This document shows, one piece after another, positions 3,274 to 53,643 of a DNA stretch of 64,000 nt (within the stretch, counting starts at the first letter, position 1; each line of letters begins with the position of its first letter). Both the position numbers and the translations under genes were made by a program. The notes below the pieces were generated by a model. That model was not told where the DNA came from. It did no database searches and saw only the letters and a list, made by a program, of their open reading frames with translations. Source of the DNA: a virus (taxonomy: Duplodnaviria > Heunggongvirae > Uroviricota > Caudoviricetes); IMG/VR virus record IMGVR_UViG_3300045591_000029, positions 1 through 64,000 of that record, one strand, 5' to 3'.

Positions 3274-4187
3274 TATGAACCTCCACGAGTTCCATTCATA
3301 CCTAGCTCTTTAGTCTTATAGAACTCAATCCAATAAGTCTCTCGTTCATTTAACTAATCTCTAGGCACTTCTTCCAAAACCTCAAATATAAAATTATATT
3401 GACCAGATTTTTGCATCGCCTAATATAACTTATTAGTCGCAGGTCCGTATGCTAAAGAGGTTTTAATGTGCTGTCTAAAACGCTCTTTAATATCAACAGA
3501 CTAACCAATATAAGCCTAACCAGTTGTTAAATCGGTAATCTTATAGATGCCGCAGACCTTCGCTGCTTTAGAGAATAATCTTGCCATAAGCGTATCATAT
3601 GAAGGTTTATAATAAGTTTCCCAAATTAGCTTATCTATTGCTTCTTTCTTAAAGAAACGCTTCTATAATTCACGGAGCAATTCAATATCACTAATATCTA
3701 TTTCATCAATAGCAAGACGATAATAGTCCTAATCTGCGGCAATCGCTTCTTGGCGTTGCTAAGCCTAGATATAAGACAACTATTTAGCTTCTAATTCGTG
3801 GAGTTTGTCTTGCTGATAAGAGATTTGATTAGTTATCTATTGAAGTTCTGCTAAATGATACTTTTCTTTGGCTTGATATGTTTCATCCAGCTCTTTAGTT
3901 TTCTTTTCAAATTGAGCTCTAGCGCTCTCTTCTGCTCGCTACTCAGCGCTTTCCCGCAACTTATTCGCAGTATCGTTCAAAGAATTGACAATTTCATTAT
4001 GTGATGCAATATCTTCTTTTACTTTTGCTAATTCTCTCTATTTCAATGCAATATCTTGTTCAATGCGTTTATTCTCTTCTTGTCTTTCTTTATTTATCAA
4101 TACTACCTAAAGCCGATTATTGCGAAGATATAAAACATATCCGATTAGCGCAAGAATAACCAGGCCTGATAATATGTAATAAATCAT
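3274..4187 (-). CDS. TAG-recoded gene: N-terminal TM helix plus coiled coil, C-terminal GIY-YIG nuclease domain (13 in-frame TAG)
   Basis: hand translation on minus strand: MIYYILSGLVILALIGYVLYLRNNRL*... GIYKITDLTTG*AYIG*SVDIKERFRQH...ETYWIEFYKTKELGMNGTRGGS; only TAG interrupts, ends with TAA; invisible in standard-code ORF track. Confidence 0.55.
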
Positions 4188-4198
4188 AAGTAAAAGAA

Positions 4199-4228
4199 AT
4201 CGGTAAGAGGCATAATCCTCTTACCGAT
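4199..4228. terminator. hairpin atcggtaagagg-cataatcc-tcttaccgat downstream of 4237..4500
   Basis: 10-bp perfect inverted repeat. Confidence 0.4.
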
Positions 4229-4236
4229 CTAATTTA

Positions 4237-4500
4237 TTACTCCTGGGCGTCAGGATCGAAAGCCAAGCCCTTATCAGTCAAGCGAAGATACTTAACTTTC
4301 TGATGGGAGCCATCGGCAAGCTCAACCTCAGCGGGCTCACGCACACCATAGTCCTTGCGCTGTAGAGCGGAGGTAAAAATACCATCAACCTGGCGCTTCT
4401 CAAGACCAAGAGCTTCAGCCACATCAGCGGCAGTCAGATCCTTGTCAGTATTGTCCTTTAGATAATCAAAAACCTTACGAGTATTTTCCTTCATAGCCAT
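4237..4500 (-). CDS. hypothetical protein
   Basis: 87 aa intact ORF with RBS. Confidence 0.45.
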   Translation of the reverse strand: MAMKENTRKVFDYLKDNTDKDLTAADVAEALGLEKRQVDGIFTSALQRKDYGVREPAEVELADGSHQKVKYLRLTDKGLAFDPDAQE

Positions 4501-4792
4501 TGTAATAATCTCCTCTAAAATGTATTATTTAATTCTCGATGCAATTAAAGCATCAATTTCCAGTAAAGCATTTATCCCATCGGGAAAAGCCATAATCTAG
4601 TTAGTTAACTGCATAATTCGGTCTTCTGCGTGGGCTTTTTCCTCTTTTGAGGAATTTTCATCTTGGTGAATAAGTTCGCATTTATAGATTTCATCTGCGA
4701 ACCGCTTCATCTGTTTACGGGTCATACAATCTGTCCTTTTACTATTGCTTTTCTGAATTACATATATATTATATCAGAAAATATTTTTTAAG

Positions 4793-6004
4793 TCAACAAA
4801 AAATTTCTGATATAACGCAATCTTTAGCATCCTTATCTTCTCGTTTACACTTGAATACTGGATGTCGCAAAGTATGCTCTTTCTTATCAATTTGCATACA
4901 ATCAAGAGCTACAACATGACCAAGCCACAAATCGGGATTCTCAGTCATTTCTCTTTTGTTATCGTCAGTTAATCCAGAACTAACTGTACCTAAATCAACT
5001 AATTCACCCTTATCATTGTATGCGCCAATCTTAATTGCGGTTTTCCAGCCTAAATAATAAGGCTTAGTTACCGGAGTATAAAATCTATCCGCTTCGTCCA
5101 ACCACTTAGAACCATTAGCGGGAGGATTGTTGAAATACTTCTCATATAGATTACCCTCAACTAAGCGGGGATTGCACCATCCACCAAAGCAATGGTCTTC
5201 CTCAAAGCAATCATAGAATGAAGGTTGCGTCTCTTCCCAGTATTCCCAAGTAGCTAACTCTTTACCAGTATACTCTTTTGTAGCATCGCAAAAGCCAGTG
5301 CAGATTAAATCAATAGAATCCATCTGCTTGACTTTAATAGTCGACCACGCAGGTCTTTTACCGGGAGTGTATGGATAATCCTTCTTCTTTAAAACTGCAC
5401 CCTCGCCGCCAGATTTCAAGATACGAGAGATTTCAGCTTCCATATCTTCGTCAACACGAGTAGCAAGTCTCAAGAAACTGTACTGGTCGAGATTATGTTT
5501 CTTCCAAATTGCTGCAAGAATTTTATAGCGCAAATCCGCAGGTGAGTCAATAAGATTGACCGTATCATATGCAATAATATCATGCACATAATAATGGATT
5601 GGTTCTTTTTCTTGTCTCTTGATAGCAAGAGCAGGTAAACATCCCATAATACTTACAGTATCTTTCGATGTACCTCCGGGAACATAGATTTCTCCAATAA
5701 GGATAGTTCCTGCGGGAAGGCAGTTCAACGCCTCTTTTAAGTGAGGTACATTGTCACTTTTTTCTGTAAGGATACCAGATAGTTTACTTACTGTGCGACC
5801 AAAAAGATAAGAATGATTTTCAGTTTTTACAAACTGATAAAATGCTCCATCAATCTTCTCTTCAAGAAAATATTCCCCATTAGAGCATACTTCAGAGAGC
5901 ATGGATTCCTTTCCCGCAGGTAACTTCCAAATAAGCATTGGCTCAATCATTAAGTTTTCTGCTTCAGGATATAATTCATGTATCTTATCTTTATCAAAAC
6001 TCAT
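4793..6004 (-). CDS. ATP-dependent polynucleotide ligase (DNA ligase-like nucleotidyltransferase)
   Basis: motif I EEKIDGAF (KxDG) plus downstream ligase-like motifs; 403 aa. Confidence 0.6.
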   Translation of the reverse strand: MSFDKDKIHELYPEAENLMIEPMLIWKLPAGKESMLSEVCSNGEYFLEEKIDGAFYQFVKTENHSYLFGRTVSKLSGILTEKSDNVPHLKEALNCLPAGTILIGEIYVPGGTSKDTVSIMGCLPALAIKRQEKEPIHYYVHDIIAYDTVNLIDSPADLRYKILAAIWKKHNLDQYSFLRLATRVDEDMEAEISRILKSGGEGAVLKKKDYPYTPGKRPAWSTIKVKQMDSIDLICTGFCDATKEYTGKELATWEYWEETQPSFYDCFEEDHCFGGWCNPRLVEGNLYEKYFNNPPANGSKWLDEADRFYTPVTKPYYLGWKTAIKIGAYNDKGELVDLGTVSSGLTDDNKREMTENPDLWLGHVVALDCMQIDKKEHTLRHPVFKCKREDKDAKDCVISEIFC

Positions 6005-6096
6005 TTATTGTTATTCCCTTTCTTTATATAAATATATTATAATAATTAAAAAGAAAAGTCAACTAAGAGAAAGAATGGGTATACCCATTCTTTCTC

Positions 6097-8474: not shown

Positions 8475-10373
8475 TTACTCAAAATTGAAACCGAGTTCGT
8501 TGGCATTATCGTAGATATACTGCTTGCGGGGTTCAACTGCGCTGCCCATTAGAATGTTGAGTAATTCCGTAGTTTTCTCTGCATCAGAGATAGAAATACG
8601 CTTATATCTCTCATTCATAAAGCAAACTTTTTGCAAATCTTCAGGATTCAACTCGCCAAGGCCCTTAGCACGCAGTAAATCATACGAGCCGTTATGACTA
8701 TTCTTCCACTCTGTTAATTCATCTTCGGAGTAACAGTAATACTCTTTTCCCTTTTGACGAATAATATACAATGGAGTTACAGCCCTGTATAGCTTACCCG
8801 CTTCCACGAGAGGCCGCATATAAGTATAGAAGAAAGTGATAAGCAGAAGCTCAATGTCTGCGCCATCACTATCTGCATCGGAAGTAATAACAATCTTGTC
8901 AAAATTCATCTTATTGACATCAAAAGAAGAATCAAATCCAGCGCTAATTACACGCACAATATCTGACATCTCTTGATTCGCAAGAATCTTGTCTACCGCA
9001 GTTTTCAACGGAGAGACAATCTTTCCTCGCAACATATAGATGCAGTCAGTCTTAGGATTGCGGGCCTCCACCGCAGACGCACCTGCAGACAAGCCCTCTA
9101 CGAGAAGGAGGTTACGGTTTTTAGGATTCTTATTCGTGCAATCAATAAACTTGTTACTGATTTGCATTTTTGCCTTAAGACCGGTTTCCTTTTTCGCTTT
9201 TACTCCACGAGCCGCGTCTCTTGCCTTACGAGCAGCTTCTCTCGCTTTACGGGCATTAAGCGCCTTATCTGCGATTCCCTTAATATCTTTCTCGTTTGCG
9301 GCGAACCAGTATTGAAGTTCCTCTGCAATTGCCGCGGTAAAGGGCTTCATATCGAGTTTAACTACTCTACTCTTAGTCTGAGCATCATATGCAACACCAG
9401 GAGCGGTCACATTAAAGGCAATATACATACCTTCCTGACAATCTTCACCAGTGAGATTTTCGTCCTTATCTTTTAGCCACCCTTTTTCACGGAAGAATTT
9501 ATTCATCTCTCTCGTGAGGATGGTTTTAATTTGCGTAATATGCGGACCTGAATCTGTAAGGCCAGTATTTACATAAGGGACAATGGTTGCAGAATAAGCA
9601 TTTGTATAAGTTAGAACTAAATCTAACTTGTTCTTGCCATCAGAAAAATTGAAGTTTAAGCGGTTCTTCAAGATTTCCTTACCTTTAACTGCTTCATCTA
9701 CTAAGTCCATAAGACCATTCTTAGAAGCGAAGATAACCTGCGGTTGTCCTTCTCTATTCAACTCGATAGTCAGGCCTGGGCACAAGCACGCAATTACCTT
9801 AAAAAGATTGGTAATGACAGACATATCTACCTCCGGATGTGTGAAGAACTCTTCATTAGGCTGCCACTGAACCAAAGTACCAGAGGGACTATTCTTGTTA
9901 TCCCATGTGCCCGTATCTCGTTTATCAAAGACGCCTTCCTTGAACCAGATATGCTCGTACTTACCATTTCGATGAGTAATTACCTCAAGCCAATGAGATA
10001 GATAAGTTGTCAGCTTACTACCAATACCATTCAAACCAAGAGCAGTACCTTCATAAACGCCATCGTCAGAATACTTACCAGAAGTATTTAGCACGCTAAA
10101 GGATGCTTCGAGCACAGTCTTACCATCATCACGCATGGCATTAGGAATAAATCCCTGACCGTTATCTTCTACAATAATCGTATTATCCTTTTTAATGGTA
10201 ACAATAATTTTATTACCGTGACCTGCCTTAAATTCATCGACTGCGTTAGAGACAATCTCAATCAATAGCTGAGTAGAATACTCAGTGCTACCGACGTAAA
10301 CGCCTGGCCGCAGTCTTGTAAACTCTAATGGAGAAAGTGACTCGATTGATTTCTCGTCATATAGTTTTCCCAT
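8475..10373 (-). CDS. type IIA topoisomerase subunit B (GyrB/ParE-like, ATPase plus Toprim)
   Basis: LLVEGLSAGASA (Toprim EGDSA), ITSDADSDGADI (DxDxDG), GHKL-type N-terminus; 632 aa. Confidence 0.85.
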   Translation of the reverse strand: MGKLYDEKSIESLSPLEFTRLRPGVYVGSTEYSTQLLIEIVSNAVDEFKAGHGNKIIVTIKKDNTIIVEDNGQGFIPNAMRDDGKTVLEASFSVLNTSGKYSDDGVYEGTALGLNGIGSKLTTYLSHWLEVITHRNGKYEHIWFKEGVFDKRDTGTWDNKNSPSGTLVQWQPNEEFFTHPEVDMSVITNLFKVIACLCPGLTIELNREGQPQVIFASKNGLMDLVDEAVKGKEILKNRLNFNFSDGKNKLDLVLTYTNAYSATIVPYVNTGLTDSGPHITQIKTILTREMNKFFREKGWLKDKDENLTGEDCQEGMYIAFNVTAPGVAYDAQTKSRVVKLDMKPFTAAIAEELQYWFAANEKDIKGIADKALNARKAREAARKARDAARGVKAKKETGLKAKMQISNKFIDCTNKNPKNRNLLLVEGLSAGASAVEARNPKTDCIYMLRGKIVSPLKTAVDKILANQEMSDIVRVISAGFDSSFDVNKMNFDKIVITSDADSDGADIELLLITFFYTYMRPLVEAGKLYRAVTPLYIIRQKGKEYYCYSEDELTEWKNSHNGSYDLLRAKGLGELNPEDLQKVCFMNERYKRISISDAEKTTELLNILMGSAVEPRKQYIYDNANELGFNFE

Positions 10374-11342: not shown

Positions 11343-12749
11343 TTATTGACCACTCTTTTCAGCATAACGTTTTAGAACGGCTGCAAATTCACCACGAGTC
11401 ATAAAGCGTTTTGGCATCAACTGACCTTTTTCATTGCCATTGATTAAGCCATTAGCTTGTGCCCAAGTCATTGCGTCTTGCTCCCAGGTGACTGGTTGCG
11501 CAGCGAGCTGACTAAGATATACATTCATCATTTCATTGAATTTTTCTTGAGTCATGTCTTCATCATCCTCCTCGATACCTTTAGACTGCATTAAAGCAGC
11601 AACATCTTTGCGGACGGTTGTCATATCTTTGCCATATTTCTTGAACCAATGGTATACATCAGCATGGTTGCTACCGAGACCTAGTTGATAGCTATCTTGA
11701 TGGCAGAGAATAGTTGGAACCGTTACACCATTTACATTTACAGAACCATTTGGATTGATATTATATGTCTTGCATAAGTAAGCTGTCAATTCGCAAGCTT
11801 CTTTGTAGACTTTAGCGAAGTAATCGGGGTCACTTAGATTGTCTTCGCAGATTTCAAACTGAATCCATCCAGTATTACAGCTACCTTTAGATCCTGAACC
11901 GCAACCCCAAGGTCTATAATTCCAAGGTAGTGTTTGTACTGCGGCTACGCTTCCGTCAGCAAGAGCACCAATCCAAGCGTTTACACCAGCCTGCTATGAA
12001 CTATGATTCCAATCGGTTCTACTGGTATTTTTACCAATTTTAGTAATCAGAGATTGATAGTTCTTGTCGTTCTCAGACGGTTGAACATAACGCTTAATGG
12101 TCTTATTATTAGCGCCTGTACTGTGCCAGAGGACGCCTTTAATATCCATCTTGCGGGTTTGCTTATAACAAGTGCTATTAGTCATCATACAAACCAATGG
12201 TTGATTAGCGTTTGAATATTTCATCTTAGCTACTTCCTCCTTTTGCGTTGAATAAGTATTGAAGTAACGTTGGCCATATAACGCACGCTATTTTAGTGTG
12301 CTAGAGCTCTGATCTGCCGGTCTTTCGAACTGAGTGACCACCAAATTAGATGCTTCTTCAACAGATGAGGTAGTCTTCAAGATTTTTAATAGCTGGGAGT
12401 AACTTGTAGTTAGTTCCTGATATAAAAAATCTAGTTGGGTGTTTAAGTCACCAATAGACTTTCCTCGACTTTTACACAGCTAAAATAGACCTTGCTTGCG
12501 GCTCCAATATGTCCATTGAGCTAAACCATATCCCGCAGAATCATGCGTGAAATTGGTATAGGAGCCGTTATCAACAGCCGCAGTATACGAGGCATCATTC
12601 ATTCCTAACTCACTCTCATATGAGTTCTATAAGTTAGTTGGAATAAGTCCGCTTTCCGCGAATAGATTCCCCATTAGACCTGCGGCGCCGCAGTTACTTA
12701 ATCCTTTTGATTTGAGATAATCCCAAATAACTTGAGCATTATCCGCCAA
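11343..12749 (-). CDS. multidomain endolysin (cell-wall hydrolase) with C-terminal SLH domain; 4 in-frame TAG, TTG start
   Basis: continuous frame through TAGs: ...CGAAGLMGNLFAESGL... MKYSNANQPLVCMM...GVLWHSTGANNKT... ...TWEQDAMTWAQANGLINGNEKGQLMPKRFMTRGEFAAVLKRY (SLH-type motif). Confidence 0.6.
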
Positions 12750-16536: not shown

Positions 16537-17223
16537 TTATCCGTAGTAACCTCCATCGGGAGGATCTCGTTTATAAGAGGTGCAAAGTTCAGGGATACAG
16601 CCACAATTAGGATAGGTATACACGCACTTATCGCATCTAATCACAGGCTTTGGTTTTTCAACCTACAGCTGAGCCTTGCACTCTTCTACCTTCTCGTTCA
16701 TTTCTTTGATAACATCATCAAGGAGAACGGGATAGCACTCGTGGGAATCGACTCCCACATGATACATGAAAGGAATTTCATTGTAGAAATTACTTGTTTG
16801 ATGGGTATGACCAAAGAGATTGCAAGTCACCTGCTTAAGTGACTCTTTCTCAAGATTGCCTGTTAAAGTAGGATAATGAGAAGCATAGAAATGATACTTG
16901 CGATAAGTGAAAGCATAAGCGTCAAACACGGGAATACCAGCTCTAAGATAGGCTTCTCTGCGGTTAGCAGTATCATGGTTACCACCAACCACGAGTTTAC
17001 GACCATTCATGCGATTGAGCAAAGCAATCCCTTCCTCAAGCTTATCAGCTCCGCCGAGCATGAGGTCGCCGCAGATAATAAGAGTGTCTTCAGGGGCCAC
17101 GCACTCATTATTCTTCTTTACGATAGTCTCATTCATCTCTTCAACACTCTCAAAACCACGAGCTTTCCAGATAAATTCCTTATCGTGATTATAATGGTAA
17201 TCTGATGATAGCCAAATTTTCAA
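16537..17223 (-). CDS. calcineurin-like metallophosphoesterase with TAG read-through C-terminal Cys-rich extension
   Basis: GDLMLGG...GNHD motifs; ORF ends at TAG 16663-16665, same frame continues VEKPKPVIRCDKCVYTYPNCGCIPELCTSYKRDPPDGGYYG to TAA. Confidence 0.55.
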
Positions 17224-17229
17224 TATAAG

Positions 17230-17934
17230 TCACTTCCTTTTGGGTGTTGTAATGGCTTCAATTCTCGACATTCCATTTTTCATACGCTTGTATACCGAAT
17301 TTTTTGAAATATTATAAATGGAACACCAATCTTTGAAATTGTGAAATTCTCCATTGATTTCAATTAACTTGCTGGCTTCTTCTATGGGGATGTTATTTGG
17401 AATGATTTCCAGTGTTTCTGGATTATATTCCCTAAATATAAATCCCTTTACTGTTTTATATCTGTTACTACCGGATGCGCATTTTCTAATACTAGCTCTA
17501 TCAGTTCCTAACTCATGAGCTGCGGCAGTTATTGTAGGAAAAAATTTCTTTTCTCCACTTGTTTCTGAAATGGCACAAATGGGTGTTGCCAATTTAGCTC
17601 GTACTTCTGGATCATCAAATGGATATTCTGTGTTTAGAGTTTGATTATATCCATGCTAAGAGGTTAAGCTATTATATTCAATGATTGCATCATGCTCTAA
17701 TTTATATCTTTCTTCTGGAGTTTGAATATCTTTTATTAAGATTTGAAAATCAAAATTCTCTATACCATATTTTCTTATGGCTCGATATAATGGATATTCA
17801 TATCCTGCGCGAGATTCGAGACGAGCATTTTGCTAATGTTCATACCACCTTGTTGTAAATCCTCGTGACTAGTCACTGGAACCAATATAGGTTTTATGGT
17901 TAATCAGATTTTCGATTTTATAAATGAAATACAT
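17230..17934 (-). CDS. GIY-YIG homing endonuclease with C-terminal HTH (3 in-frame TAG)
   Basis: MYFIYKIENLINHKTYIGSSD*SRGFTTRWYEH*QNARL...; C-terminal part equals track ORF 17230..17592. Confidence 0.6.
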
Positions 17935-18023
17935 TTTATCACCTTCCATTTATAAATGGAAATTCTTACAGACTCTTTTATTACTTCTGACCTCATCTTT
18001 GATAGTCATTGAAAAACTTATTC

Positions 18024-18557
18024 TTAATGGTGCACACGCACCTCGATATTAGAAAATCCCCAATTGGTCTTAGGAAACTCTTTTTCAGTAGGAATAGAAA
18101 ATCCCTTCTTCATCTTCTTAATTGCGGAATCGGGGATTCTGGCAACGCCAGTCCGCTGAGCATTACGCTCAAGAGCGGTTTCGACAGGAACATCAATGAC
18201 TTCAAAGGTCAATTTGGTATGCGGATCTGCGATCAACCGACCAAGGAGCTTTGCACGAGAAGCGGGGCTAATATGAGTCGCATCCGCAAACACAACATCA
18301 ATATCAAGTTCCATAGCTTCATTAATCTGTCGGACAAATTCGTCGAATACTTCAACTTCTTTGTCAAAGTAGCTATCACGATCGGTCAAGATGGACTGCC
18401 GCACGAAATCTCTGGAAACTACACAAGTGGTGCGATGCTCTTCTTCAATTCGGGCTACCTCTTGCTTCACCCAAGTAGATTTTCCGCTACCGGGTACCCC
18501 AACCATGACTTTCAGTTCAGTTGTCATTCTTTTCGCCTCCATCCATTTTTGCCCCAC
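18024..18557 (-). CDS. P-loop polynucleotide kinase (Pnk-like kinase domain)
   Basis: VMVGVPGSGKSTW Walker A, AAA_33-like kinase layout; 177 aa. Confidence 0.55.
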   Translation of the reverse strand: MGQKWMEAKRMTTELKVMVGVPGSGKSTWVKQEVARIEEEHRTTCVVSRDFVRQSILTDRDSYFDKEVEVFDEFVRQINEAMELDIDVVFADATHISPASRAKLLGRLIADPHTKLTFEVIDVPVETALERNAQRTGVARIPDSAIKKMKKGFSIPTEKEFPKTNWGFSNIEVRVHH

Positions 18558-18792
18558 AATGTGAACAATACTCCCAGAAGTTACTCTTGATTACTTTCTT
18601 ACATACCGGACAAATTCGTTCCGTATGATAATTCATGCCAACTTCAATATCCCATTTACTGTGAGTTACTGGAATAACATCTGCAGCTGGTATTGCCATC
18701 AGTGCAGCAGCACTCACGTACACATCGTCCCAACGACCATGTATGAAATTGGCTTGCGATACAGCCACAGCACGGTCAATGTATTCTGGCAT
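18517..18792 (-). CDS. zinc-ribbon protein
   Basis: CPVCKK...CSHCGAKM; 91 aa. Confidence 0.4.
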   Translation of the reverse strand: MPEYIDRAVAVSQANFIHGRWDDVYVSAAALMAIPAADVIPVTHSKWDIEVGMNYHTERICPVCKKVIKSNFWEYCSHCGAKMDGGEKNDN

Positions 18793-19054
18793 TAGCTAAC
18801 CTCCGTTCAACTTCAGCCATCACCCAAGCAATATCTTCATCAGATACCTCGGTTTCAAACTGAATAGAGCAGTTCTCACCTTTTACTCTTGCTTCAATGA
18901 GCAAATTAACAGCATCTTCAAGGTCCTGTTGATGCTCTATGAAAGGAGAAAAAGCTCGATTCTCTTGAGCACAAGGACATGGGACAGGAGACCAAAGATC
19001 GGATTTGCATCTTGGGTTATCGTGATAATCTAACATACCATGCGGATGAGTCAT
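18776..19054 (-). CDS. hypothetical protein
   Basis: 92 aa intact ORF. Confidence 0.4.
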   Translation of the reverse strand: MTHPHGMLDYHDNPRCKSDLWSPVPCPCAQENRAFSPFIEHQQDLEDAVNLLIEARVKGENCSIQFETEVSDEDIAWVMAEVERRLANARIH

Positions 19055-19220
19055 TACTTTTCCTCCTGTTCAATAAACTGCTGAATGATAGCCATTGATT
19101 TTTCAATATCATTTAGCTCGTCATCAATGAACACGCCGCTCCAATCCAGACTATCAATAATGCCATCGAGGGTTTCCAACGCTTTAACAGCGTCATTTTT
19201 AGTGACCATACCTCATGACT

Positions 19221-19262
19221 TCCTTTCTTAACTTTCTATAAATATTATAATATATATTTATA
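19221..19262 (-). promoter_or_regulatory. same promoter-like motif
   Basis: tcctttcttaactttctataaatattataatatat. Confidence 0.45.
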
Positions 19263-19305
19263 ATAAAATCAAAAGGTTCTAAGAATTAGAACCTTTTGAT
19301 TTTAT

Positions 19306-19803
19306 TTAATTAGTTTGATCAGTAAAATAGACTTGTGAAAGTTCACCAATGTCATCAATCTCACAATCGTTTATTTCAAATGGCCAATCTACCCATAAAT
19401 CAATATGATTTTCTAAAAAATTTAATGGATCTTTCTTAAAAGTTTTATAATCTTCCTCAGATAGCTCAAGTTCTCCATGGTAATATCCGCCTCGTAGATA
19501 ACCAGTAACCCAATCTACTTCTGCATCTATATTAACTTTATGAGTTACCTCAGTTGGATTGTCAAGAGAGATATAATATTTTTTGCCATTGATTTTTTTC
19601 CAGAATGAATAACTACTTTTTGGATAGCCAACTTTTTTTTCTAGAATATCTTCCTTGGTATTAGATTGCAACACAATAACTGGGTTTTTACGCGGATCTT
19701 GACCAATTGGGTGAAAATCTACTCCATCGGCGCCGGTAATTTCAAACCATTCTTTCCATCCTGTTCCTTTTTGCCATTCAGCCATTATTATTCCTCCTGA
19801 CAT
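19306..19803 (-). CDS. hypothetical protein
   Basis: 165 aa intact ORF. Confidence 0.45.
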   Translation of the reverse strand: MSGGIIMAEWQKGTGWKEWFEITGADGVDFHPIGQDPRKNPVIVLQSNTKEDILEKKVGYPKSSYSFWKKINGKKYYISLDNPTEVTHKVNIDAEVDWVTGYLRGGYYHGELELSEEDYKTFKKDPLNFLENHIDLWVDWPFEINDCEIDDIGELSQVYFTDQTN

Positions 19804-20612
19804 TGGATTAGAGATTCGATATACTCGCGTCCTTCTCCGACAAATAGCGGGATACTTTTATCAATTTCCCAGCTAGAGCGAGTTACACCATCGGTCTCAG
19901 TTGTAACCTTGATGCAACAAGAGCCATGCTTATACATAGGATGAAAGTTTTCCCAAGAAATCCCTTTCTCCGTGATTAGCATCTCTTTGATTTTCTCACA
20001 AGACTTACCTTGGAGTTCTTTATGAGAGAAATTAGCCTGGCCTACCATTTGAATAGAATTGCGGGTTGCATCTAGCTGACGCCAATAGACGAGGTTGGTG
20101 ACCTCTTCTTTGGGAATATTGAAGCAACGAGCATCAAACATGGCGCCCATTTGTGTTTTTACTGCATAAGTCTGGCCCAAATCATCTTGTGGGTAAGGGT
20201 TATCCATAGTCGCATGAGCGGCATAATAATCTAGATTCCTATGCCGGACTCCTTCATTAAATGCTTTATTGAAAGCCATCGTTGCCATAGAAGCAGCGAT
20301 AGAGCACATTTTCTGTACCTCGTAATCAAACCAAGCAGAGCTGTTGAGCCGCTTGTAATCAACAAGGATAAGAGTGATTTCATCACTTTGTGTATACCCT
20401 AACACGCACCCTTGAATGTTTTCACAGAGATATTTCATGGTATCCTGCATTGTGTTAATCAATACATCATCAAAAGGCTTGCTGAAACCACGGGTAAAGG
20501 TGTGGAAAGCTTTACCGTCAATGCGAATTGCAACCGGTGTACGACGCATTAGCTTAGTCTTAGGAACGCTTTCGTAATCTTTCATTCTTTTAGCCAGATC
20601 TGACGTATCCAT
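19788..20612 (-). CDS. Thg1-like protein (tRNA-His guanylyltransferase family; 3'-5' nucleotidyl transferase for tRNA 5'-end repair)
   Basis: VAIRIDGKAFHTFTRGFSKPFDDVLINTMQDTM...LGYTQSDEITLILV matches Thg1 core (RxDG..FH.F...KP.D...QSDE). Confidence 0.6.
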   Translation of the reverse strand: MDTSDLAKRMKDYESVPKTKLMRRTPVAIRIDGKAFHTFTRGFSKPFDDVLINTMQDTMKYLCENIQGCVLGYTQSDEITLILVDYKRLNSSAWFDYEVQKMCSIAASMATMAFNKAFNEGVRHRNLDYYAAHATMDNPYPQDDLGQTYAVKTQMGAMFDARCFNIPKEEVTNLVYWRQLDATRNSIQMVGQANFSHKELQGKSCEKIKEMLITEKGISWENFHPMYKHGSCCIKVTTETDGVTRSSWEIDKSIPLFVGEGREYIESLIQCQEE

Positions 20613-20613
20613 A

Positions 20614-21387
20614 TTATACCTCCTTTATAAATACACTAGTTTCTAACAATAAATCTTCTAAACAAATATCTTGTTCGTGAGTATATGGAATCCTGATAAT
20701 CTTTATTCCGTTAGTAGAACACCATTGATTTTTTATTTTGTCATGCAATACTGTTTTTTTGAATTGTTCTTTGGTATTCCATCCTCGTCCGACATAGGAA
20801 AAATGTTGTTCTCCATCAAACTCAATAATGTATTCATCGTTTACATAAAAATCAAAACGAGCTAGTTGCTTAGTATCAGGGAAAACACAATCAGGAAAGG
20901 TTTTTTCTTTTTCAAAGCTGATATTATTAGCAGTTAGTATCTTTTCTATTGTGTATGCTCCATGAGATTGCTTCATACAGCCACAGGAGAATGTTTTCCC
21001 GCTTACCAAGTTGTAACTACGGACTTCGGTCTCATTTCCGCAATCGCATAAACAATGCCATACTACCTGTCCATTCAGTCTTTTACTAGTTGGATATTGA
21101 GCTACCAATTTGCCGAATCTCTAATTAGATAAATCTTTAATTGGAGTTTTCTTGCCGGCACGCTCTTTCTACAAGCATCCACAAGACTATGTTAATCCTT
21201 TTCGCAGGTTAGAACTAAGCACATCTTTTTCATTTCCGCAGTCGCAAATACAATGCCAGATAGTCTCTCCTCGGCTATCTTTTCCAGCGATATTAAGTGC
21301 TGTTAAGCGTCCGAATTTCTGTCCAGTAATATCAATTCTTCTTCCCATAATCTCATAAAACTCCTTTATATTTATTTTTTCTACCAT
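20614..21387 (-). CDS. putative homing endonuclease of the FGRLT...WxCxCDCGN zinc-module family (three modules; 3 in-frame TAG); joins track ORFs 20614..21108 and 21187..21387
   Basis: frames identical (573 nt apart), intervening sequence ...KGLT*SCGCL*KERAGKKTPIKDLSN*RFGKLVAQYPT... has only TAG stops. Confidence 0.5.
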
Positions 21388-21497
21388 AAATGAATTTTAT
21401 GAAATAGAGATTAAACTTTTCTGTCCTTAGATATTCATGGCTGGTAGAATCTTCCCCTTTCTTATACATATATTATATAATAAAATAATAAAAAAAT

Positions 21498-21520
21498 CAA
21501 GGGAGCAAAAAGCTCTCTTG
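21498..21520. terminator. hairpin caagggagc-aaaa-agctctcttg flanked by T/A runs (bidirectional)
   Basis: 9-bp stem with one G.U, poly-A upstream and poly-T downstream. Confidence 0.45.
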
Positions 21521-21622
21521 ATTCTTCTTTTAATCCTTGCTCTTTCCGAGATTACTAGTCTTGAAATAGCTGCCAATCCAACCGAGCGTACCGGCGCAAA
21601 GTGGAATCATATCCTTGGTAAA

Positions 21623-21793
21623 TCAAGTTGTCTGGAACAAAGTATTTAGACCATCAGTGAGAATATTACCAATGGTAATAGAAGCCACCTATCCTCCGAA
21701 ATAGCACAGCCAAAAAGAGATAAAGGGGAGAACGAGTACTGTTGCGATTATCAAAGCAATAGCTCCCAGAATAGCCAGAAAATCATCCATCAT
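21623..21793 (-). CDS. small membrane protein with one in-frame TAG
   Basis: MMDDFLAILGAIALIIATVLVLPFISFWLCYFGG*VASITIGNILTDGLNTLFQTT. Confidence 0.3.
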
Positions 21794-21808
21794 AATAAAC
21801 TCCTTATA

Positions 21809-22090
21809 TTAAAATAGAATATCGCGCTCAAACTGAACGCTATAAGCAGAGCTGGGATGGCTTTTACATCTATTAACCCATTCACAATGCCCCAGCACAG
21901 CTTCTTCTCTAGTGGCATAACGAGCCACAATAATCATATTATGGTCAGCGACCCAAACCGCGGTTTCATAACCCTGGTCTGCGGTTAGACAAGTGTCGAT
22001 AGTATAATCATCGACTTGATCGCGCCCAACGAGATCAGCGTCGTGATTGTTGCAAGCAATGCCAAACATTAAACTCATAAGATTATCCAT
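21809..22090 (-). CDS. hypothetical protein
   Basis: 93 aa. Confidence 0.4.
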   Translation of the reverse strand: MDNLMSLMFGIACNNHDADLVGRDQVDDYTIDTCLTADQGYETAVWVADHNMIIVARYATREEAVLGHCEWVNRCKSHPSSAYSVQFERDILF

Positions 22091-22814
22091 TGCGTTTCCT
22101 CTTTTCCTTCTTTTTCGTAGCTACATCAATAGTCTGTCGATGTACAGAGTAGATTTTTGAGGTAAGCCCATTCTTCATCAATTTATTTAGATTGACCGGG
22201 CTGTAGTTAATTGCGTCAGAGCAAACATTCAGATGTCTGTCGTCATTTTTATGACGACGATCATGGATATGACCATGAATATTAAACACCCAAGGCATCA
22301 TAGGAAGAGGTTCATGGGAGAGAATAAGTTTTTCTCCAATCATGAGAGGCCCCTCATAGATCTCGTCAAAGAGATTATTGTCTGCGGAAACTTCCCAATA
22401 ATCAAAAGGAAAATTGAAGTCATATACATCAGTAATGGAATACTGACAATCGGGGTAGATGCGTTTCATTTCATCAAGAGCCTCAGATTTCTGAAAGACT
22501 TCTTTGGGGAACTTACGAGAAATCTTTTTGCGCTCATAATTACTGCGGCCGGCGTCATGGTTCCCCATAATGAGCACCTTATAACCACGAAGTTTAGCGC
22601 ACATAGCCGGGTCGCCGCAGTCTCCCAAGATAATCAGAACATCTTTCTTACCAACTTTGCTATTGATAAGTTTAACCTGCTCTTCATCGGAAGGACGACC
22701 TGGAGTTCCAGCGGCGAGTTCTTTATCACCAAAATGAGGATCTGAATATACCCAAGTTGTCTGTCCATTCCATCTTTCGTTAAAAACTTTATACAGTCCG
22801 GGAATCATCACCAT
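22083..22814 (-). CDS. calcineurin-like metallophosphoesterase
   Basis: GDCGD...GNHD...HGHIH motifs. Confidence 0.7.
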   Translation of the reverse strand: MVMIPGLYKVFNERWNGQTTWVYSDPHFGDKELAAGTPGRPSDEEQVKLINSKVGKKDVLIILGDCGDPAMCAKLRGYKVLIMGNHDAGRSNYERKKISRKFPKEVFQKSEALDEMKRIYPDCQYSITDVYDFNFPFDYWEVSADNNLFDEIYEGPLMIGEKLILSHEPLPMMPWVFNIHGHIHDRRHKNDDRHLNVCSDAINYSPVNLNKLMKNGLTSKIYSVHRQTIDVATKKKEKRKRNG

Positions 22815-23551
22815 TCCTCCTTCTTAGAAAGGTCAATTGCGTCGGCAGCATTAAAGATATGTTCATCAAAGCTATCTAAATCTAACAATACAGTATAACC
22901 AGTATACCAGCTTGCACAGTCCAAATCAACTTTGTGGTCTTGTGCATACCACCAAGCTCCACCATCCCAATCTGGAATTTCATCGCTCCAATTATTTCGT
23001 TTTAACAGATATGGAATAGGAGTATGACCGTGCACGCAAATTTCTTTATCACCAAAAATAGGTTCCTTAGAGTGCCAATGGCATCTATCCCAAAGTAGAT
23101 CGTCGTCATTAGGGATAGCATCATCCTGCATTGGATTAAAGCCAGCATGACAGAGATGGATAGTGATTCCCTGTTCATTTACATATTTCTTATAGGTTGG
23201 TAGTTTCTTGAGATAATTCCACCAGCCAGTTTTCATTGGTTCTAAAAGCCAGTCAAGGAAAGTTTCTCCACCACCATTTTGAGAAAGCAAAGCAAAATTT
23301 TTCCCAAGGACTCCGCATCCTTCTCTCCGCACTTCATCTTCCATGGCTTTTACCAGCATATCTTCGTGATTACCTTTAAGATAGATAAAACGCTTATCTT
23401 GAGCAACTGCCTTGATAGTCTCCCAAGGATTTGGACCTCTATCTCCGGCATCGCCGAGAAAATAAACCGTATCATCGGGTTGTAAGAAATCCTGAATCTG
23501 CTTCAATAGATCCAATCTACCGTGCAAATCTGAACACGCATATGTTGCCAT
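22808..23551 (-). CDS. metallophosphoesterase (PP2B/PrpE-like Ser/Thr phosphatase or Ap4A hydrolase family)
   Basis: DLHGR...GDAGDRGP...GNHE...HGHT motifs. Confidence 0.7.
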   Translation of the reverse strand: MATYACSDLHGRLDLLKQIQDFLQPDDTVYFLGDAGDRGPNPWETIKAVAQDKRFIYLKGNHEDMLVKAMEDEVRREGCGVLGKNFALLSQNGGGETFLDWLLEPMKTGWWNYLKKLPTYKKYVNEQGITIHLCHAGFNPMQDDAIPNDDDLLWDRCHWHSKEPIFGDKEICVHGHTPIPYLLKRNNWSDEIPDWDGGAWWYAQDHKVDLDCASWYTGYTVLLDLDSFDEHIFNAADAIDLSKKEEW

Positions 23552-24438: not shown

Positions 24439-24591
24439 AATCTTTAAATTGAGAGGCAAAGTGTAAGAGTATTAAAGAGAGAGTCCCTGTCGTAAAACCG
24501 GTAAGATAGACGGCTGAAGGAGGAACTATTGTTCCTAGAATAGAACCAGCAACAATAGTAGCCAGCCACAAACCATAGAGGATAATTCTCA
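24439..24591 (-). CDS. small membrane protein (50 aa, below track threshold)
   Basis: MRIILYGLWLATIVAGSILGTIVPPSAVYLTGFTTGTLSLILLHFASQFKD with RBS. Confidence 0.3.
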
Positions 24592-25322
24592 TACCTCGTC
24601 CTGCGCCTCCTCCATATCGGGAGCAGTCTCAGTCTCTTTGATAATACCCTCTAAATAATTTATATTCAAGTTATCAAACTCCTTATAAGATATTCTAACA
24701 AGTTTTATATTGTGGGTTTTGCAATACTCGGTTTTATAAGCATCTCTTTTTTGGATAATAGCCAAAGAGTCTTTTCTGTGTTGCCATCCAACTTCATGCT
24801 GTTCTCCATCATATTCAATAAGGCATATAAGTTTATTATTATTGTCAAATATTGCATAATCAAAGCTCGCAGATTTTCCACTATCTGGAAATATACAGTC
24901 TGAAATCTTATACTGTGAGATAAAGTGAATATTCATCTAAGTCAACAGTTCGTTAATTTTTAATTCGGCCTTCGACTTCAAGCATCCACATGATTGTGTA
25001 TTACCATCCATTAAATTATCTGTTTGAACAATAACAATATTACCGCACTCACATAAACATTTCTAACTTCCTGGCGGTACTCGCTCTAAGACAGTGAGTT
25101 TTCCAAATTTTTTACCTTTTAGGTCATAGGTTTTGAAATGTATTGCTTTATCGCATCCACAAGACCCGGTATGTCCATTTCGTAGAAAATCTGTTCTTAC
25201 TTCTGTTATATTCCCACAATCACACTAACATATCCATCTAGTATATTTATCATTGCGCTTAGGAGCACGTTCGAGCGCTACTAATTTCCCGAAGCGTTGA
25301 CCAGTTAAATCCAATGCTTTCA
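24589..25322 (-). CDS. putative homing endonuclease of FGKL...CDCGN family (3 in-frame TAG); track ORF 24589..24936 is its C-terminal part
   Basis: MKALDLTGQRFGKLVALERAPKRNDKYTRWIC*CDCGN...GKKFGKLTVLERVPPGS*KCLCECGN...LT*MNIHF... paralogous to 20614 gene. Confidence 0.5.
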
Positions 25323-49145: not shown

Positions 49146-49236
49146 TGGCAGCCCCGCTGGGGTTCGAACCCAGACTTACTCCTTCAGAGGGATACGGTTT
49201 TAGAGACCGCCGTGCTAACCATTACACCACGGGGCA
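49146..49236 (-). tRNA. amber suppressor tRNA, anticodon CUA (loop CUCUAAA), class II scaffold (about 20-nt variable arm), G73, unpaired U1.U72
   Basis: plus strand ...gatacggt-tttagag-accgc...: AC stem gcggt/accgt (G.U closing), rc loop CTCTAAA; acceptor tgccccg/cggggct, D arm gtgtaatggttagcac, T arm ctggg-ttcgaac-cccag, CCA encoded. Confidence 0.7.
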
Positions 49237-50418: not shown

Positions 50419-50959
50419 TGGCTGTCCCGGAGGGATTCGAACCCTCGACCCCACGATTGCTTACACATCAGCTTACCAGTTCTTTACTACTTCCTCCAAT
50501 TCATAGTCTTTGGCCCAAGTGATACCTCTAACTTGACCATTTTTTGTAGGAAGAATACGAAGTCTTTTGTCAGCTCCACACTCTCCTACTGGGATTAGAT
50601 AACACTTTCCATTAAAAGTAGTCACGAAATAATCAATTTCTTCGCTAGTATATTGATGATGAACAATTTTTCCATCTTTTCTATGACAACTTCTACCAGA
50701 AAAGACAAAAGAAGCACCATCATCTTCGGTTCGTGATGTTTTTGCTTGAATTTTAATGAATTTTCCATTGACATCAACAACAAAATCATAACGCTCACAA
50801 TCTCCATAGGGAGTTAAAACATTATAACCAAGTTTAGCAAATGCCAACATCGTTTCAAGTTCTGTAATGTTACCTTTTTGCTTACTATTCATTTTATTTT
50901 CATAAAAACGATAAGGTCAGGTAAACAGTCGCGTGCTCTGCCAGCTGAGCTACAGGACA
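50419..50959 (-). tRNA. split tRNA-Asn(GUU) (Asp-GUC not fully excluded): 3' exon 50419..50458, insertion/intron about 50459..50923, 5' exon about 50924..50959
   Basis: 5' exon tgtcctg-ta-gctcagctggcagagc-a-cgcga-ctgtt; 3' exon aa-tcgtg-gggtc-gaggg-ttcgaat-ccctc-cgggaca-g-cca; acceptor and AC stems pair only across the 465-nt insertion. Confidence 0.55.
50473..50892 (-). CDS. PD-(D/E)xK nuclease (paralog of 41044..41454) encoded inside the tRNA-Asn insertion
   Basis: TELETMLAFAKLGYNVLTP....RYDFVVDVNGKFIKIQAKT; C-terminal LIPVGECG...LPTKNGQVRGI conserved between both copies. Confidence 0.55.
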   Translation of the reverse strand: MNSKQKGNITELETMLAFAKLGYNVLTPYGDCERYDFVVDVNGKFIKIQAKTSRTEDDGASFVFSGRSCHRKDGKIVHHQYTSEEIDYFVTTFNGKCYLIPVGECGADKRLRILPTKNGQVRGITWAKDYELEEVVKNW

Positions 50960-51876: not shown

Positions 51877-51944
51877 ATCATTTACTTCCTTTCCTTAACT
51901 TTCTATAAATATTATAACAAAAATATTATAATATTTCAAATAAG

Positions 51945-52030
51945 GTTTGAAGCTGGCATCAAGGGTACGAGTCGAACGCATTACCACGAGATTTGGAGTC
52001 ACGCCTCAGTCCCTCTGAGATTAAGGTTCC
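51945..52030 (-). ncRNA. tRNA-like structured element (acceptor atcaagg/ccttgat, CCA) with irregular arms
   Basis: hand fold gives good acceptor but poor T and anticodon arms. Confidence 0.25.
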
Positions 52031-52062
52031 CTTGATATATTCTTCCCTCCATAGGTGTCAGT

Positions 52063-52499
52063 CTAAGAATGACAATTAGGGCATAAAAATCTTAAATTTT
52101 CAAGCCTATGGTCATCATTTACTCCATTGATATGGTCTAATTGCAAACTAATGGGTTTACCTAACCATGAATCAATACCACAACAAGCGCATTTATATTC
52201 TAAATATCCTTCTCTTACTAGTCTGGACTTTAGACGACTAATATTATGATAAGTAGAATGTTCTACTAAAATTTCTTCAAGTGTATATTTTGCATTTGCC
52301 GCAGTTAATTTCTTTGTCCCAAAGTGGGAAATATCGCAAGATAATTCTTGAATACGCTCTTTGAGGATATCTGTAGAAGAACCACCTTTAGTAGTTAATC
52401 CCAGCATCCTTAAACAATCTGAATAACTATTCGCCTATGAAACAATGGTACGAAATTCTTCATCAGTAACTTGATAAATTTTACTTCTTCTAGCCATAT
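52063..52499 (-). CDS. HNH homing endonuclease (1 in-frame TAG); track ORF 52063..52407 is the C-terminal part
   Basis: MARRSKIYQVTDEEFRTIVS*ANSYSDCLRMLGLTT...LQLDHINGVNDDHRLENLRFLCPNCHS. Confidence 0.6.
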
Positions 52500-52569
52500 A
52501 TAATGACCTCCTTTATTTGTTCATTATATATGAAAATTATAGAAATTACCTTTACCAAAACTGACCAAC

Positions 52570-52640
52570 ATTTTACCGAATCTTGGATTTGAACCAAGAC
52601 TATTGCAAAGCAATTTTCTACCTATTGAAATAATTCGGTA
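52570..52640 (-). ncRNA. pseudo-tRNA: exact acceptor (accgaat/attcggt) and T arm cttgg-atttgaa-ccaag but anticodon arm collapsed to a 3-nt loop hairpin attgc-ttt-gcaat
   Basis: seen directly. Confidence 0.3.
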
Positions 52641-52892
52641 TATAACCCTCGAAACAGCCTTCTCGAGGGGCGCTCAATCTTAAATGCCGGAGCTATACAA
52701 ACGGCGAGCAGTCTTTCTTCATTCCCCGTAAAGAAAGTCTGTAAAGATAGCTTAGTCAACTTTCGCTATCGGCGCCATGCCTCACCTTTATGCCTAGGTC
52801 ATAAAAGGATTGCGCTATTGTTGATTGGCATTATGGAGCAAGATACCGGGTTCGAACCGGCCCTTTCAGTTTGTGGTGTCTCATATAAGATT

Positions 52893-53643
52893 TGAACTTA
52901 TATCTTTGACCACATTTCATCAGAATATTTTTTAATATCAGATTTACGATAAGGTAAATCGTAGGCTTTACACCATTTTTTAATGGTGTTATCAGAAACA
53001 GAAAAATTTTTTCCTATACTCACAAAAGTTTCTGCCCTAATCATATCTTTTAAGACTTCTCTACTCGGTCTTTCACACTTTTGTTGTCTAATATGGTCAC
53101 AGGCAGAACATCTAATTGCTCCCTTAGAAATTTCTTTTCCACAATCAACGCAATAATGATGCTATTTTGTTATATCTTTTACCTTGCGTAATGGATACTA
53201 TTCACCTTCAATAGTATGATAATCACCACGATTAAGATAATAAACCATGCTTAAGTCTAAACCATATTTTTCACTAATTTGTGAAAAAGATAGCTCAGAT
53301 TTTTTAATATCTTGAATAATACTATCCAAGACCTCTGGTGCATATCTCTTAAAAACTTGGTTCTATGAACTACCGCCAGATGTAATATTATATCCATTGG
53401 GAGTAATTGAGTTATACTTTTGAATATAGAATTTTTCTCTTGTATCTAAAAGATACTCTGGACATTCTTCGATAATGGAAAAAGCAAAATTATCTTTTCC
53501 TTCTCGTTGAATCGCCTACCCAATTAGCGAATTACTACGGCAATGCTCTGCAAATCGCTTTTCGATATGAAGGCTCTAACCCACATATACCTTACCATCA
53601 GTCAGATTTTCAATTTTATAAATACCAATAGACAAGTCTTTCA
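52893..53643 (-). CDS. GIY-YIG homing endonuclease, I-TevI-like with C-terminal zinc finger/HTH (5 in-frame TAG)
   Basis: MKDLSIGIYKIENLTDGKVYVG*SLHIEKRFAEHCRSNSLIG*AIQREGKDNFAFSIIEECPEYLLDTREKFYIQKYNSITPNGYNITSGGSS*... Confidence 0.6.

Follow-up and report, generated by a model that had tools for sequence, protein, structure and literature searches.

Mobile nuclease genes, TAG recoding and nuclease-bearing tRNA inserts in a 64-kb region of a gut phage

A 64,000-nucleotide stretch of phage DNA (positions 1 to 64,000 of IMG/VR record IMGVR_UViG_3300045591_000029, hereafter the window) carries twelve genes with homing-endonuclease-like domains, most of them interrupted by in-frame TAG codons and two of them lying inside tRNA genes. 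The locus raises the question of whether these genes are mobile, how they would be translated, and what becomes of the tRNAs that they split. The account that we regard as very probable is that of a gut phage in which TAG encodes glutamine and in which a region of nucleotide-metabolism, RNA-repair and tRNA genes has been colonised by 11 mobile homing genes that are rich in TAG and would depend on a suppressor tRNA for translation.

The window belongs to a gut phage whose genome is about 145 kb long and whose replication module is SPbeta-like. Contigs with identical proteins are 90–150 kb long, and in them the gene order continues with YorF, YorH, DnaB, RecJ-like, PIF1-like helicase and DNA polymerase III alpha genes. 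Nearly all coding in the window is on the minus strand, GC skew is negative to about 60 kb, and open reading frames (ORFs) become longer and merge when TAG is read as sense. No GenBank phage was matched by megablast with 25 kb of the window as query, and synteny was therefore taken from IMG/VR contigs. Relatives are numerous there (GyrB protein identity 42–99%), and 120 related loci were collected via four anchor genes.

Mobile nuclease genes and a fixed relative

The twelve genes had been proposed in an earlier reading of the window made from the letters and translations alone. All of them exist, all are on the minus strand, and each contains a nuclease domain. The coordinates given in that sequence-only reading were right for eight genes and off by 1–42 nt for the other four, which are corrected here from 3274..4187 to 3273-4187, from 24589..25322 to 24589-25323, from 52063..52499 to 52021-52497 and from 52893..53643 to 52898-53644 (Table 1). 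Annotation with hidden Markov models supports the nuclease folds. The GIY-YIG domain (Pfam PF01541) was matched in five genes, with E-values from 1.7e-12 to 1.3e-3; three of the matches exceed the gathering score of 22.6 and two fall just below it (19.4 and 21.4), while PHROG homing-endonuclease families match all five at 1e-16 to 1e-22. The LAGLIDADG gene at 45364-45762, located between the transfer-messenger RNA (tmRNA) gene and a tRNA-Ser gene, gives a marginal match to Pfam LAGLIDADG_3 (E 1.8e-4; 22.1 bits, with the cut-off at 22.5).

Three genes share repeated zinc modules followed by a C-terminal EFDGEQH motif. This family belongs with Vsr-like EDxHD nucleases and is not T5orf172-like. 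Structure prediction, run on a database protein (P0001) that is 98% identical, indicates a Vsr/I-Bth0305I-like (EDxHD) nuclease fold. Among 44 homologues five residues are invariant (D166, E176, D178, H182 and D203 in P0001 numbering); they occur in the expected order, as judged without a residue-by-residue superposition on I-Bth0305I. The N-terminus consists of two repeats of a beta module with four invariant cysteines (C-x-C-x-C...C-G-C), and the copies at 24589-25323 and 20614-21387 are 41% identical. No Pfam NUMOD was matched in these proteins, and no match was found among PDB sequences. Whereas I-Bth0305I and other EDxHD enzymes use a NUMOD or helix-turn-helix (HTH) part to bind DNA, two Cys4 zinc beta-modules are present here, and up to several in homologues. 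The family is large (about 6,000 members) and unannotated, and is a source for mining new site-specific nucleases.

To assess mobility, the window was aligned to all loci and the presence or absence of each gene was scored in relatives with both flanks conserved. This synteny comparison, which the sequence-only reading had proposed, found 11 of the 12 genes to be polymorphic with clean junctions, nine of them free-standing and two in tRNA genes (Table 1). Empty sites have 0–300 bp between flanks that still align at 75–98% nucleotide identity; for the three zinc-module genes the junctions fall at window positions 20585/21448, 24651/25409 and 29078/30092. Presence and absence with such near-empty sites is the signature of homing-endonuclease genes and marks the 11 genes as mobile: four GIY-YIG, one HNH, three Vsr-like EDxHD, one LAGLIDADG and two I-Ssp6803I-like PD-(D/E)xK genes. 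For the GIY-YIG genes, site-specific cleavage of the empty alleles is the predicted homing function. The 11 natural pairs of filled and empty sites are a resource for homing studies and for the discovery of new site-specific nucleases.

The twelfth gene, 3273-4187, had also been counted as a homing gene. Over its C-terminal 90 residues it matches the catalytic region of the group I intron endonuclease family TIGR01453, scoring 69 bits where 56 are required, and the rest of the protein forms a transmembrane helix together with a long coiled coil. All 18 close relatives spanning the site have the gene, and 58 of 68 related loci contain a homologue, with identities as low as about 40%. It therefore encodes a domesticated, non-mobile GIY-YIG nuclease domain.

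The 11 mobile genes take up 6.8 kb, or 10.7% of the 64-kb window. In seven related contigs the same 57–67 kb contain 0–4 mobile nuclease genes each, and the very high density first noticed from the sequence is above both chance and the family norm. The mobile nuclease load is 3–10 times that of close relatives and is exceptional for the family. As with the seg, mob and I-Tev genes of phage T4, many GIY-YIG and HNH genes lie between conserved genes, the tRNA cluster included, and are polymorphic among relatives. The window differs from T4 in having five nuclease families within about 50 kb, a load 3–10 times that of its close relatives, and a recoded genetic code.

Table 1. Nuclease-domain genes, interrupted tRNA genes and selected other genes of the window. 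The last column gives the number of relatives with and without the gene among those with both flanks conserved.
Feature	Coordinates	Strand	In-frame TAG	Matches and remarks	Relatives with / without
Conserved membrane-anchored coiled-coil protein, C-terminal GIY-YIG	3273-4187	-	13	304 aa; Pfam GIY-YIG 4.9e-8	
Free-standing GIY-YIG + NUMOD-like gene	17230-17934	-	3	I-HmuI_NUMOD-like 6.4e-9; GIY-YIG 1.3e-3; phrog_314/7168	2 / 15 (14 bp in place)
Free-standing EDxHD/Vsr-like gene	20614-21387	-	3	Two N-terminal Cys4 zinc beta-modules	0 / 15
EDxHD/Vsr-like zinc-module paralogue	24589-25323	-	3	Pfam DUF2726 1e-5; PHROG matches	0 / 9
Free-standing GIY-YIG gene	26633-27382	-	5	Pfam GIY-YIG 3.1e-4; phrog_314 7e-22	2 / 9
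Third EDxHD/Vsr-like zinc-module paralogue	29075-29827	-	7	DUF2726 4.7e-4; phrog_559 6.6e-36	0 / 11
Free-standing GIY-YIG gene	30744-31406	-	1	GIY-YIG 4.2e-11; SegE_GIY-YIG 5e-4	0 / 14
I-Ssp6803I-like PD-(D/E)xK ORF in tRNA-Met insert	41044-41454	-	none	PF11645 1e-22	0 / 8
Free-standing single-motif LAGLIDADG gene	45364-45762	-	1	phrog_5046 7e-19; visible motif LAAIIDGEG	3 / 11
I-Ssp6803I-like PD-(D/E)xK ORF in tRNA-Asn insert	50473-50892	-	none	PF11645 2.9e-30; PDB 2OST (I-Ssp6803I) 5e-10	1 / 11
Free-standing HNH gene	52021-52497	-	2	phrog_10822 1.5e-54; Pfam HNH 4.3e-4, 20.8 bits vs cut-off 21.4	1 / 9
Free-standing GIY-YIG gene with zinc ribbon and HTH	52898-53644	-	5	GIY-YIG 1.7e-12; adjoins tRNA-Lys	1 / 10 (6 of these with 0 bp in place)
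tRNA-Met(CAU), split between positions 36/37	40990-41520	-		454-nt insert 41030-41483	
tRNA-Asn(GUU), split between positions 36/37	50419-50959	-		465-nt insert 50459-50923	
Suppressor tRNA, anticodon CUA	49146-49236	-		ARAGORN; Rfam tRNA 54.5 bits; 20-nt variable arm in fold	
Endolysin-like gene	11343-12674	-	4	Pfam Phage_lysozyme2 + Amidase_2 + SLH	
NAGPA+SPOR cell-wall/lysis-type gene	44192-45301		TAG user		
Pnkp-like kinase	18024-18542	-	none		
Thg1-like enzyme	19788-20612	-	none		
ATP-dependent RNA ligase	25405-26667	-	none	Pfam RNA_ligase PF09414 6.4e-10; TIGR02306 partial match	
RlaP-like nucleotidyltransferase	31482-32279	-	none		

TAG codons and the suppressor tRNA

In-frame TAG codons occur in 10 of the 12 nuclease-domain genes, the two PD-(D/E)xK genes having none, and a tRNA with the anticodon CUA is encoded in the window. 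This agrees with the earlier suggestion that most of the genes carry TAG and would need a suppressor tRNA. The tRNA-CUA gene is kept in 15 of 15 relatives covering the site. Where window codons were aligned with those of relatives, in-frame TAG corresponded to TAG 381 times, CAA 88 times, CAG 23 times and AAA or AAG 35 times. Because of this substitution pattern, TAG is assigned to glutamine (code 15). Serine, leucine or tyrosine, as hinted at by the long variable arm of the tRNA-CUA, are ruled out by the same pattern. The tRNA itself has an unusual build for one that accepts glutamine, with an apparent U1-U72 mismatch, G73 and the D-arm GGUGUAAUGGUUAGCAC, and was labelled Pyl by ARAGORN.

TAG is strongly enriched in the nuclease genes, with 43 in their 2,571 codons compared to 15 in 13,005 other codons (odds ratio 14.7, p = 4e-22; 11.6 and p = 4e-15 when 3273-4187 is excluded). 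As a share of glutamine codons TAG makes up 38.7% in the nuclease genes and 3.6% elsewhere. The same holds for homologues across about 100–128 related loci (unique sequences), in which stops occupy 30% of glutamine-or-stop positions in nuclease genes versus 3.1% in others. Only two other genes use TAG strongly across homologues, namely the endolysin-like gene (19% stop-encoded glutamine sites) and the NAGPA/SPOR cell-wall protein gene (22%), and the former marks a TAG-rich gene class that is presumably late. Nearby replication and repair genes are almost free of TAG, whereas nuclease and lysis-type genes are rich in it. TAG use is a property of gene classes, a point that the sequence-only reading had overlooked.

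This distribution of codons suggests how the nuclease genes may be expressed. The free-standing genes are AT-rich and written in a TAG-rich code, so they would be translatable only while the suppressor tRNA is active. Their company with lysis-type genes points to translation late in infection, alongside lysis, and any benefit may lie in keeping nuclease expression apart from early replication. Dependence on TAG would also confine the mobile genes to TAG-recoded phages.

A similar arrangement has been described by Borges et al. (10.1101/2021.08.26.457843), in which recoded codons cluster in lysis and late genes, replication genes avoid them and the phage encodes a suppressor tRNA. In TGA-recoded Agate phages the same study found a single group I intron endonuclease, located within an early gene, to be preferentially recoded, and suggested delayed translation for it (10.1101/2021.08.26.457843). 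The present phage has its own suppressor tRNA, and its endolysin-like and NAGPA/SPOR genes use TAG while its replication genes do not. Whereas the Agate case concerns a single family of intron endonuclease and TGA, here nine of 11 mobile genes, from four of the five families, and the domesticated GIY-YIG gene are recoded with TAG. The nine-gene case extends the single published observation of a recoded endonuclease. With nine of 11 mobile nucleases dependent on the suppressor, recoding could be tested directly as an expression timer, and their confinement to recoded phages would be explained. Genetic-code switching may be used by selfish elements or imposed on them.

The TAG richness may instead be neutral. 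AT-rich elements that circulate only among TAG-recoded phages, under weak selection, would drift to mutational equilibrium, while early essential genes would be purged of TAG, since they have to be translated before suppression sets in. GC at third codon positions is 25.7% in the nuclease genes versus 40.3% in other genes, and CAA is preferred over CAG in the former (57:11), whereas CAG exceeds CAA in the latter (247:159), in line with drift. That the PD-(D/E)xK genes lack TAG also shows that a mobile nuclease can persist here without it. However, about 32% of glutamine sites are stop-encoded in 50 unique, diverged homologues of the fixed gene 3273-4187, where TAG appears to be maintained, and a neutral origin would still imply suppressor-dependent translation, leaving the functional consequence unchanged. 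We consider neutral drift a serious possibility, though on balance not the probable one. That the TAG-containing genes are decaying pseudogenes of a phage with the standard code, which would fit the short ORFs into which code 11 splits them, can be rejected with near certainty, since in-frame stops in the 2,571 nuclease-gene codons are exclusively TAG (43, against zero TAA or TGA), TAG positions match CAA or CAG in relatives (those of 3273-4187 included) and do so in otherwise conserved genes too, full-length domains score well with TAG read as Q, tRNA-CUA is conserved, and all genes read through TAG terminate in TAA or TGA.

Several points weigh against the overall account of a suppressor-dependent, exceptional nuclease load. 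Phage T4 has 15 homing endonuclease genes, which make up 11% of its coding sequence (PMC3943268), and the density of about 11% found here is high but not unprecedented. Recoding does not extend to every mobile nuclease, since the two PD-(D/E)xK genes lack TAG. A much higher AT content also sets the nuclease genes apart from the others, and their codon difference could partly reflect origin or mutational bias rather than selection on timing. Late translation is suggested by the company of lysis-type TAG-rich genes, and no structural genes were found within the window or the 10-kb flanks on either side, which contain only replication and small unknown genes.

Nuclease-bearing inserts in tRNA genes

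Both PD-(D/E)xK genes had been placed inside tRNA genes, and this was confirmed by sequence and by the intron mode of ARAGORN. The tRNAs are uninterrupted in relatives (loci L089 and L095 for Met, L109 for Asn), and the empty allele in L109 makes the junction of tRNA-Asn at 36/37 unambiguous. What the sequence-only reading had overlooked is that the inserts contain no recognisable ribozyme and are bound by a precise RNA pairing rule. The two window inserts are nearly all ORF, with 29–31 nt before the ATG and 14 nt after the stop codon. A search of IMG/VR with the PDDEXK_5 alignment returned 80 loci on large phage contigs; in 60 of these the ORF lies within a split tRNA with an insert of about 450–530 nt, and two have inserts of about 650 nt. 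Overall the inserts are 450–498 nt long with 25–55 non-coding nt, and always at 36/37. In a scan based on the pairing rule, at least 47 unique inserts of 380–700 nt obeyed it, as did three longer ones. Three PDDEXK_5 inserts that obey the rule (L176, L180 and L189) measure 701–846 nt, the extra sequence being a second ORF or an RNA element. Standard tRNA finders miss such interrupted genes, and annotators list the insert nucleases as stand-alone.

No covariance-model match to group I introns was obtained at the gathering threshold, nor on 13.5 kb of the window at E <= 1. The tRNA-Asn insert alone gave no group I match and no relevant Rfam family at E <= 10, and 20 diverse insert loci (64 kb) gave no group I match at E <= 1. 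The inserts do not end in a conserved G, the final base being C in 12, A in 9, G in 9 and U in 4 of 34 unique inserts. Removal of the insert in silico restored the cloverleaf in 35 of 35 unique cases. Shorter, ORF-less derivatives following the 36/37 rule were absent from 149 ARAGORN calls of 12–140 nt and from 71 calls of 140–380 nt. With none of these 220 calls obeying it, chimeric ARAGORN intron calls do not mimic the rule by chance. Long tRNA matches in L137, L150 and L155, considered as introns of this kind, were rejected and are instead tRNA-like genes with extended anticodon arms. Such genes (L137:2867-2968, L150:837-969, L155:401-533 and L142:2603-2760) lie in tRNA arrays of related phages, have 30–77 extra nt and a long anticodon-arm hairpin, and do not follow the 36/37 rule.

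The pairing rule is as follows. Anticodon bases 34–36 pair with the last three bases of the insert, and the resulting helix, H1, extends by pairing of insert positions +1 to +6 with -4 to -9. In a further helix, H2, the nucleotides immediately 5' of the ATG pair with the end of the ORF. Thirteen anticodons conform to the rule (GUU, CAU, UGU, GUC, UGG, UUG, GAU, UGC, UUU, ACG, GCU, UAC and GGG). When 31 distinct junction sequences were aligned without gaps, H1 proved to be 90% paired, with compensatory changes at nine of nine pairs and a covariation score of 1.10 compared to 0.24 in shuffles, none of 500 of which reached 1.10. Registers shifted by 1–3 columns are 34–41% paired. Cognate insert ends pair at a mean of -18.8 kcal/mol and non-cognate ends at -9.9. 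The H1 pairs comprise 226 Watson-Crick, 49 G.U and 5 A.C, and this abundance of G.U over A.C indicates selection on the sense-strand RNA rather than on a DNA inverted repeat. Of the two junctions, the 5' one falls within H1, three base pairs in, and the 3' one at the foot of the helix, so that they are staggered by 3 bp across it.

These observations raise the possibility that the inserts are introns removed by protein, with an endonuclease cutting both ends of H1 and an RNA ligase joining the tRNA halves. The cutting enzyme would be the encoded I-Ssp6803I-like protein itself or a host enzyme, and sealing would fall to a phage or host RNA ligase. If a protein endonuclease does remove the inserts, the RNA ligase encoded at 25405-26667 is a candidate for the sealing enzyme. 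The fixed site, narrow length range and few non-coding nucleotides, the missing group I match and terminal G, the covarying H1 with its sense-strand bias and cognate pairing energies, the anticodon pairing in 13 classes, and the offset of the splice sites by 3 bp across H1 are all consistent with this. So are the intact tRNA obtained on excision in every case, the absence of ORF-less derivatives, and the presence of RNA ligase and Pnkp-like kinase genes in the phage. However, the RNA-repair genes are also found in relatives without inserts and thus have no specific link to them, and no canonical bulge-helix-bulge could be built at the junctions by inspection. To our knowledge, no PD-(D/E)xK homing endonuclease cuts RNA duplexes. 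On DNA, I-Ssp6803I probably leaves 3-nt 3' overhangs. Protein splicing is favoured here because H1 keeps exactly the same register with 13 anticodons, the exons are intact and no ORF-less copies were seen, and we would put it a little short of an even chance.

A different outcome is that no splicing takes place and that the endonuclease genes landed in accessory tRNA genes and killed them, the terminal helices acting on behalf of the endonuclease mRNA, which they might stabilise as a tRNA scaffold or whose ribosome-binding site they might mask. Phage tRNAs are dispensable accessories, and other tRNA-Met(CAU) genes are present in the window, but there is no other normal tRNA-Asn. H2 covers the bases just upstream of the ATG, which resembles the translational masking of intron endonucleases such as I-TevI. 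A degenerated tRNA-Trp adjoining the HNH gene also fits gene killing. Relatives have an intact tRNA-Trp(CCA) at this site (e.g. L103 around 9966-10036), whereas in the window a divergent Trp-like sequence with an aberrant D-arm (51958-52035, minus strand) overlaps the HNH stop codon and was not called by ARAGORN or Rfam; a nuclease gene may thus have damaged at least one adjoining tRNA. On the other hand, nothing in a stabilising role requires a stem to begin precisely at base 34, paired with the last base of the insert, in 13 anticodon contexts, and in all 35 cases, from widely diverged phages, the two exons can still fold into a perfect cloverleaf. Loss of the tRNAs without splicing is judged somewhat improbable, though far from negligible. 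An unrecognised ribozyme overlapping the ORF, together with other mechanisms, shares the small remaining probability.

Comparison to known introns sets the inserts apart. Bacterial tRNA introns are group I, rarely group II (PMC13011429), and phage PDDEXK_5 genes have been listed as stand-alone (PMC12880540). The Synechocystis tRNA-fMet intron has 655 nt, of which a 150-aa ORF encodes I-Ssp6803I and about 200 nt form the ribozyme (PMC1995217). The phage inserts share with it the PF11645 protein family (PDB 2OST) and a target in the tRNA anticodon loop, here including tRNA-Met and fMet. They differ in their shorter length, the few non-coding nucleotides, the lack of a group I match and of a terminal G, and in having instead a covarying anticodon-insert helix. 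The inserts depart from the self-splicing norm of bacterial and phage tRNA introns (group I, rarely group II), and they leave no room for a ribozyme.

With archaeal and eukaryal tRNA introns the phage inserts share anticodon-insert pairing, the lack of a ribozyme and a site beside the anticodon. Archaeal bulge-helix-bulge introns with LAGLIDADG genes are likewise ribozyme-less, have their ORF closed by a stem that contains the junctions, and show anticodon-intron pairing. The phage inserts differ in lying at 36/37 and not 37/38, and in that no canonical 3-4-3 bulge-helix-bulge could be built. Both junctions of archaeal and eukaryal introns are in 3-nt bulges, whereas in the phage inserts the helix encloses the 5' junction and has the 3' junction at its foot. 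We know of no EndA-type splicing endonuclease in a bacterial virus setting.

A ribozyme-less insert architecture at 36/37 was not found described in the searchable literature, whose coverage leaves out subscription journals. The inserts could be the truly new part of this locus, the nuclease density and the link to recoding being variants of known things. Tentatively, and with rather less than even confidence, we propose a new class of tRNA intron in large phages, made up of 450–500-nt elements at 36/37 that contain little beyond an I-Ssp6803I-like gene and would be removed by protein. If this is true, it would be the first enzymatic tRNA splicing of the archaeal and eukaryal style in the bacterial virus world, a new splicing route there, and the homing endonuclease may double as its own splicing enzyme. 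If the inserts are not spliced, the systematic killing of tRNA genes by one nuclease family would have to be tolerated.

Neighbouring genes and other RNA features

RNA- and tRNA-repair genes are dense at 16537-32279 on the minus strand, where four or five metallophosphatase genes accompany the kinase, Thg1-like, ligase and nucleotidyltransferase genes of Table 1, all of them TAG-free. Six free-standing nuclease genes are interleaved with this set. The gene at 17230-17934 is flanked by a metallophosphatase gene and the Pnkp-like kinase gene, 24589-25323 sits just 3' of the RNA ligase gene (downstream on the coding strand), and 26633-27382 sits 5' of it, with its own 3' end overlapping the region of the ligase start codon. 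Larger products encoded in the window include thymidylate synthase (ThyA), an ATP-dependent DNA ligase, gyrase A and B, PhoH/PIN and an SPFH protein, and a uracil-DNA glycosylase is also present.

The coding strand flips at about 61.4 kb (window 61355-63264). A plus-strand gene at 62146-62898 encodes a SEKPT-repeat protein and has five TAG codons, and is preceded by a small ribbon-helix-helix-like ORF with one TAG. In relatives L036, L039, L062 and L064 the gyrB match is 2155–2785 nt long compared to 1896 nt in the window (260–890 nt longer), which suggests an intein or intron inside gyrB.

ARAGORN called 31 tRNAs in the window, spanning 35.5–53.8 kb. Within this array is a tmRNA (45841-46181, minus strand, Rfam 76 bits) that immediately precedes the LAGLIDADG gene when read along the coding strand. 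Gaps in the array hold two short, highly basic minus-strand ORFs (46265-46799, 104 aa; 53837-54346, 100 aa). Two minus-strand tRNA-like genes have 8-nt anticodon loops, 40913-40986 and 47955-48029, for which ARAGORN gave the anticodons 'taaa' and 'tgtt'; the latter resembles tRNA-Asn (GUU), apart from one additional U and its weak acceptor stem. At 52574-52639 (minus strand) a sequence not called by ARAGORN scores 52.7 bits as an Rfam tRNA, and its anticodon arm looks abnormal. Between tRNA-Tyr and the split tRNA-Met is a 176-nt non-coding stretch (41521-41696, minus strand), with no ORF and no Rfam family, which could be a structured RNA.

Two matches to ribozyme families fall below threshold. 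A twister-P1 match (40 bits against a gathering score of 67) lies directly 5' of tRNA-Ser(GCU) at 47783-47841 on the minus strand, and an HDV-like ribozyme match (38 bits against 44) directly follows an intron-containing tRNA-Asn in L137 (1973-2040). In L142, a ROOL RNA (3111-3417, 142 bits) ends at the edge of the locus and adjoins a phage tRNA array with an intron-bearing tRNA.

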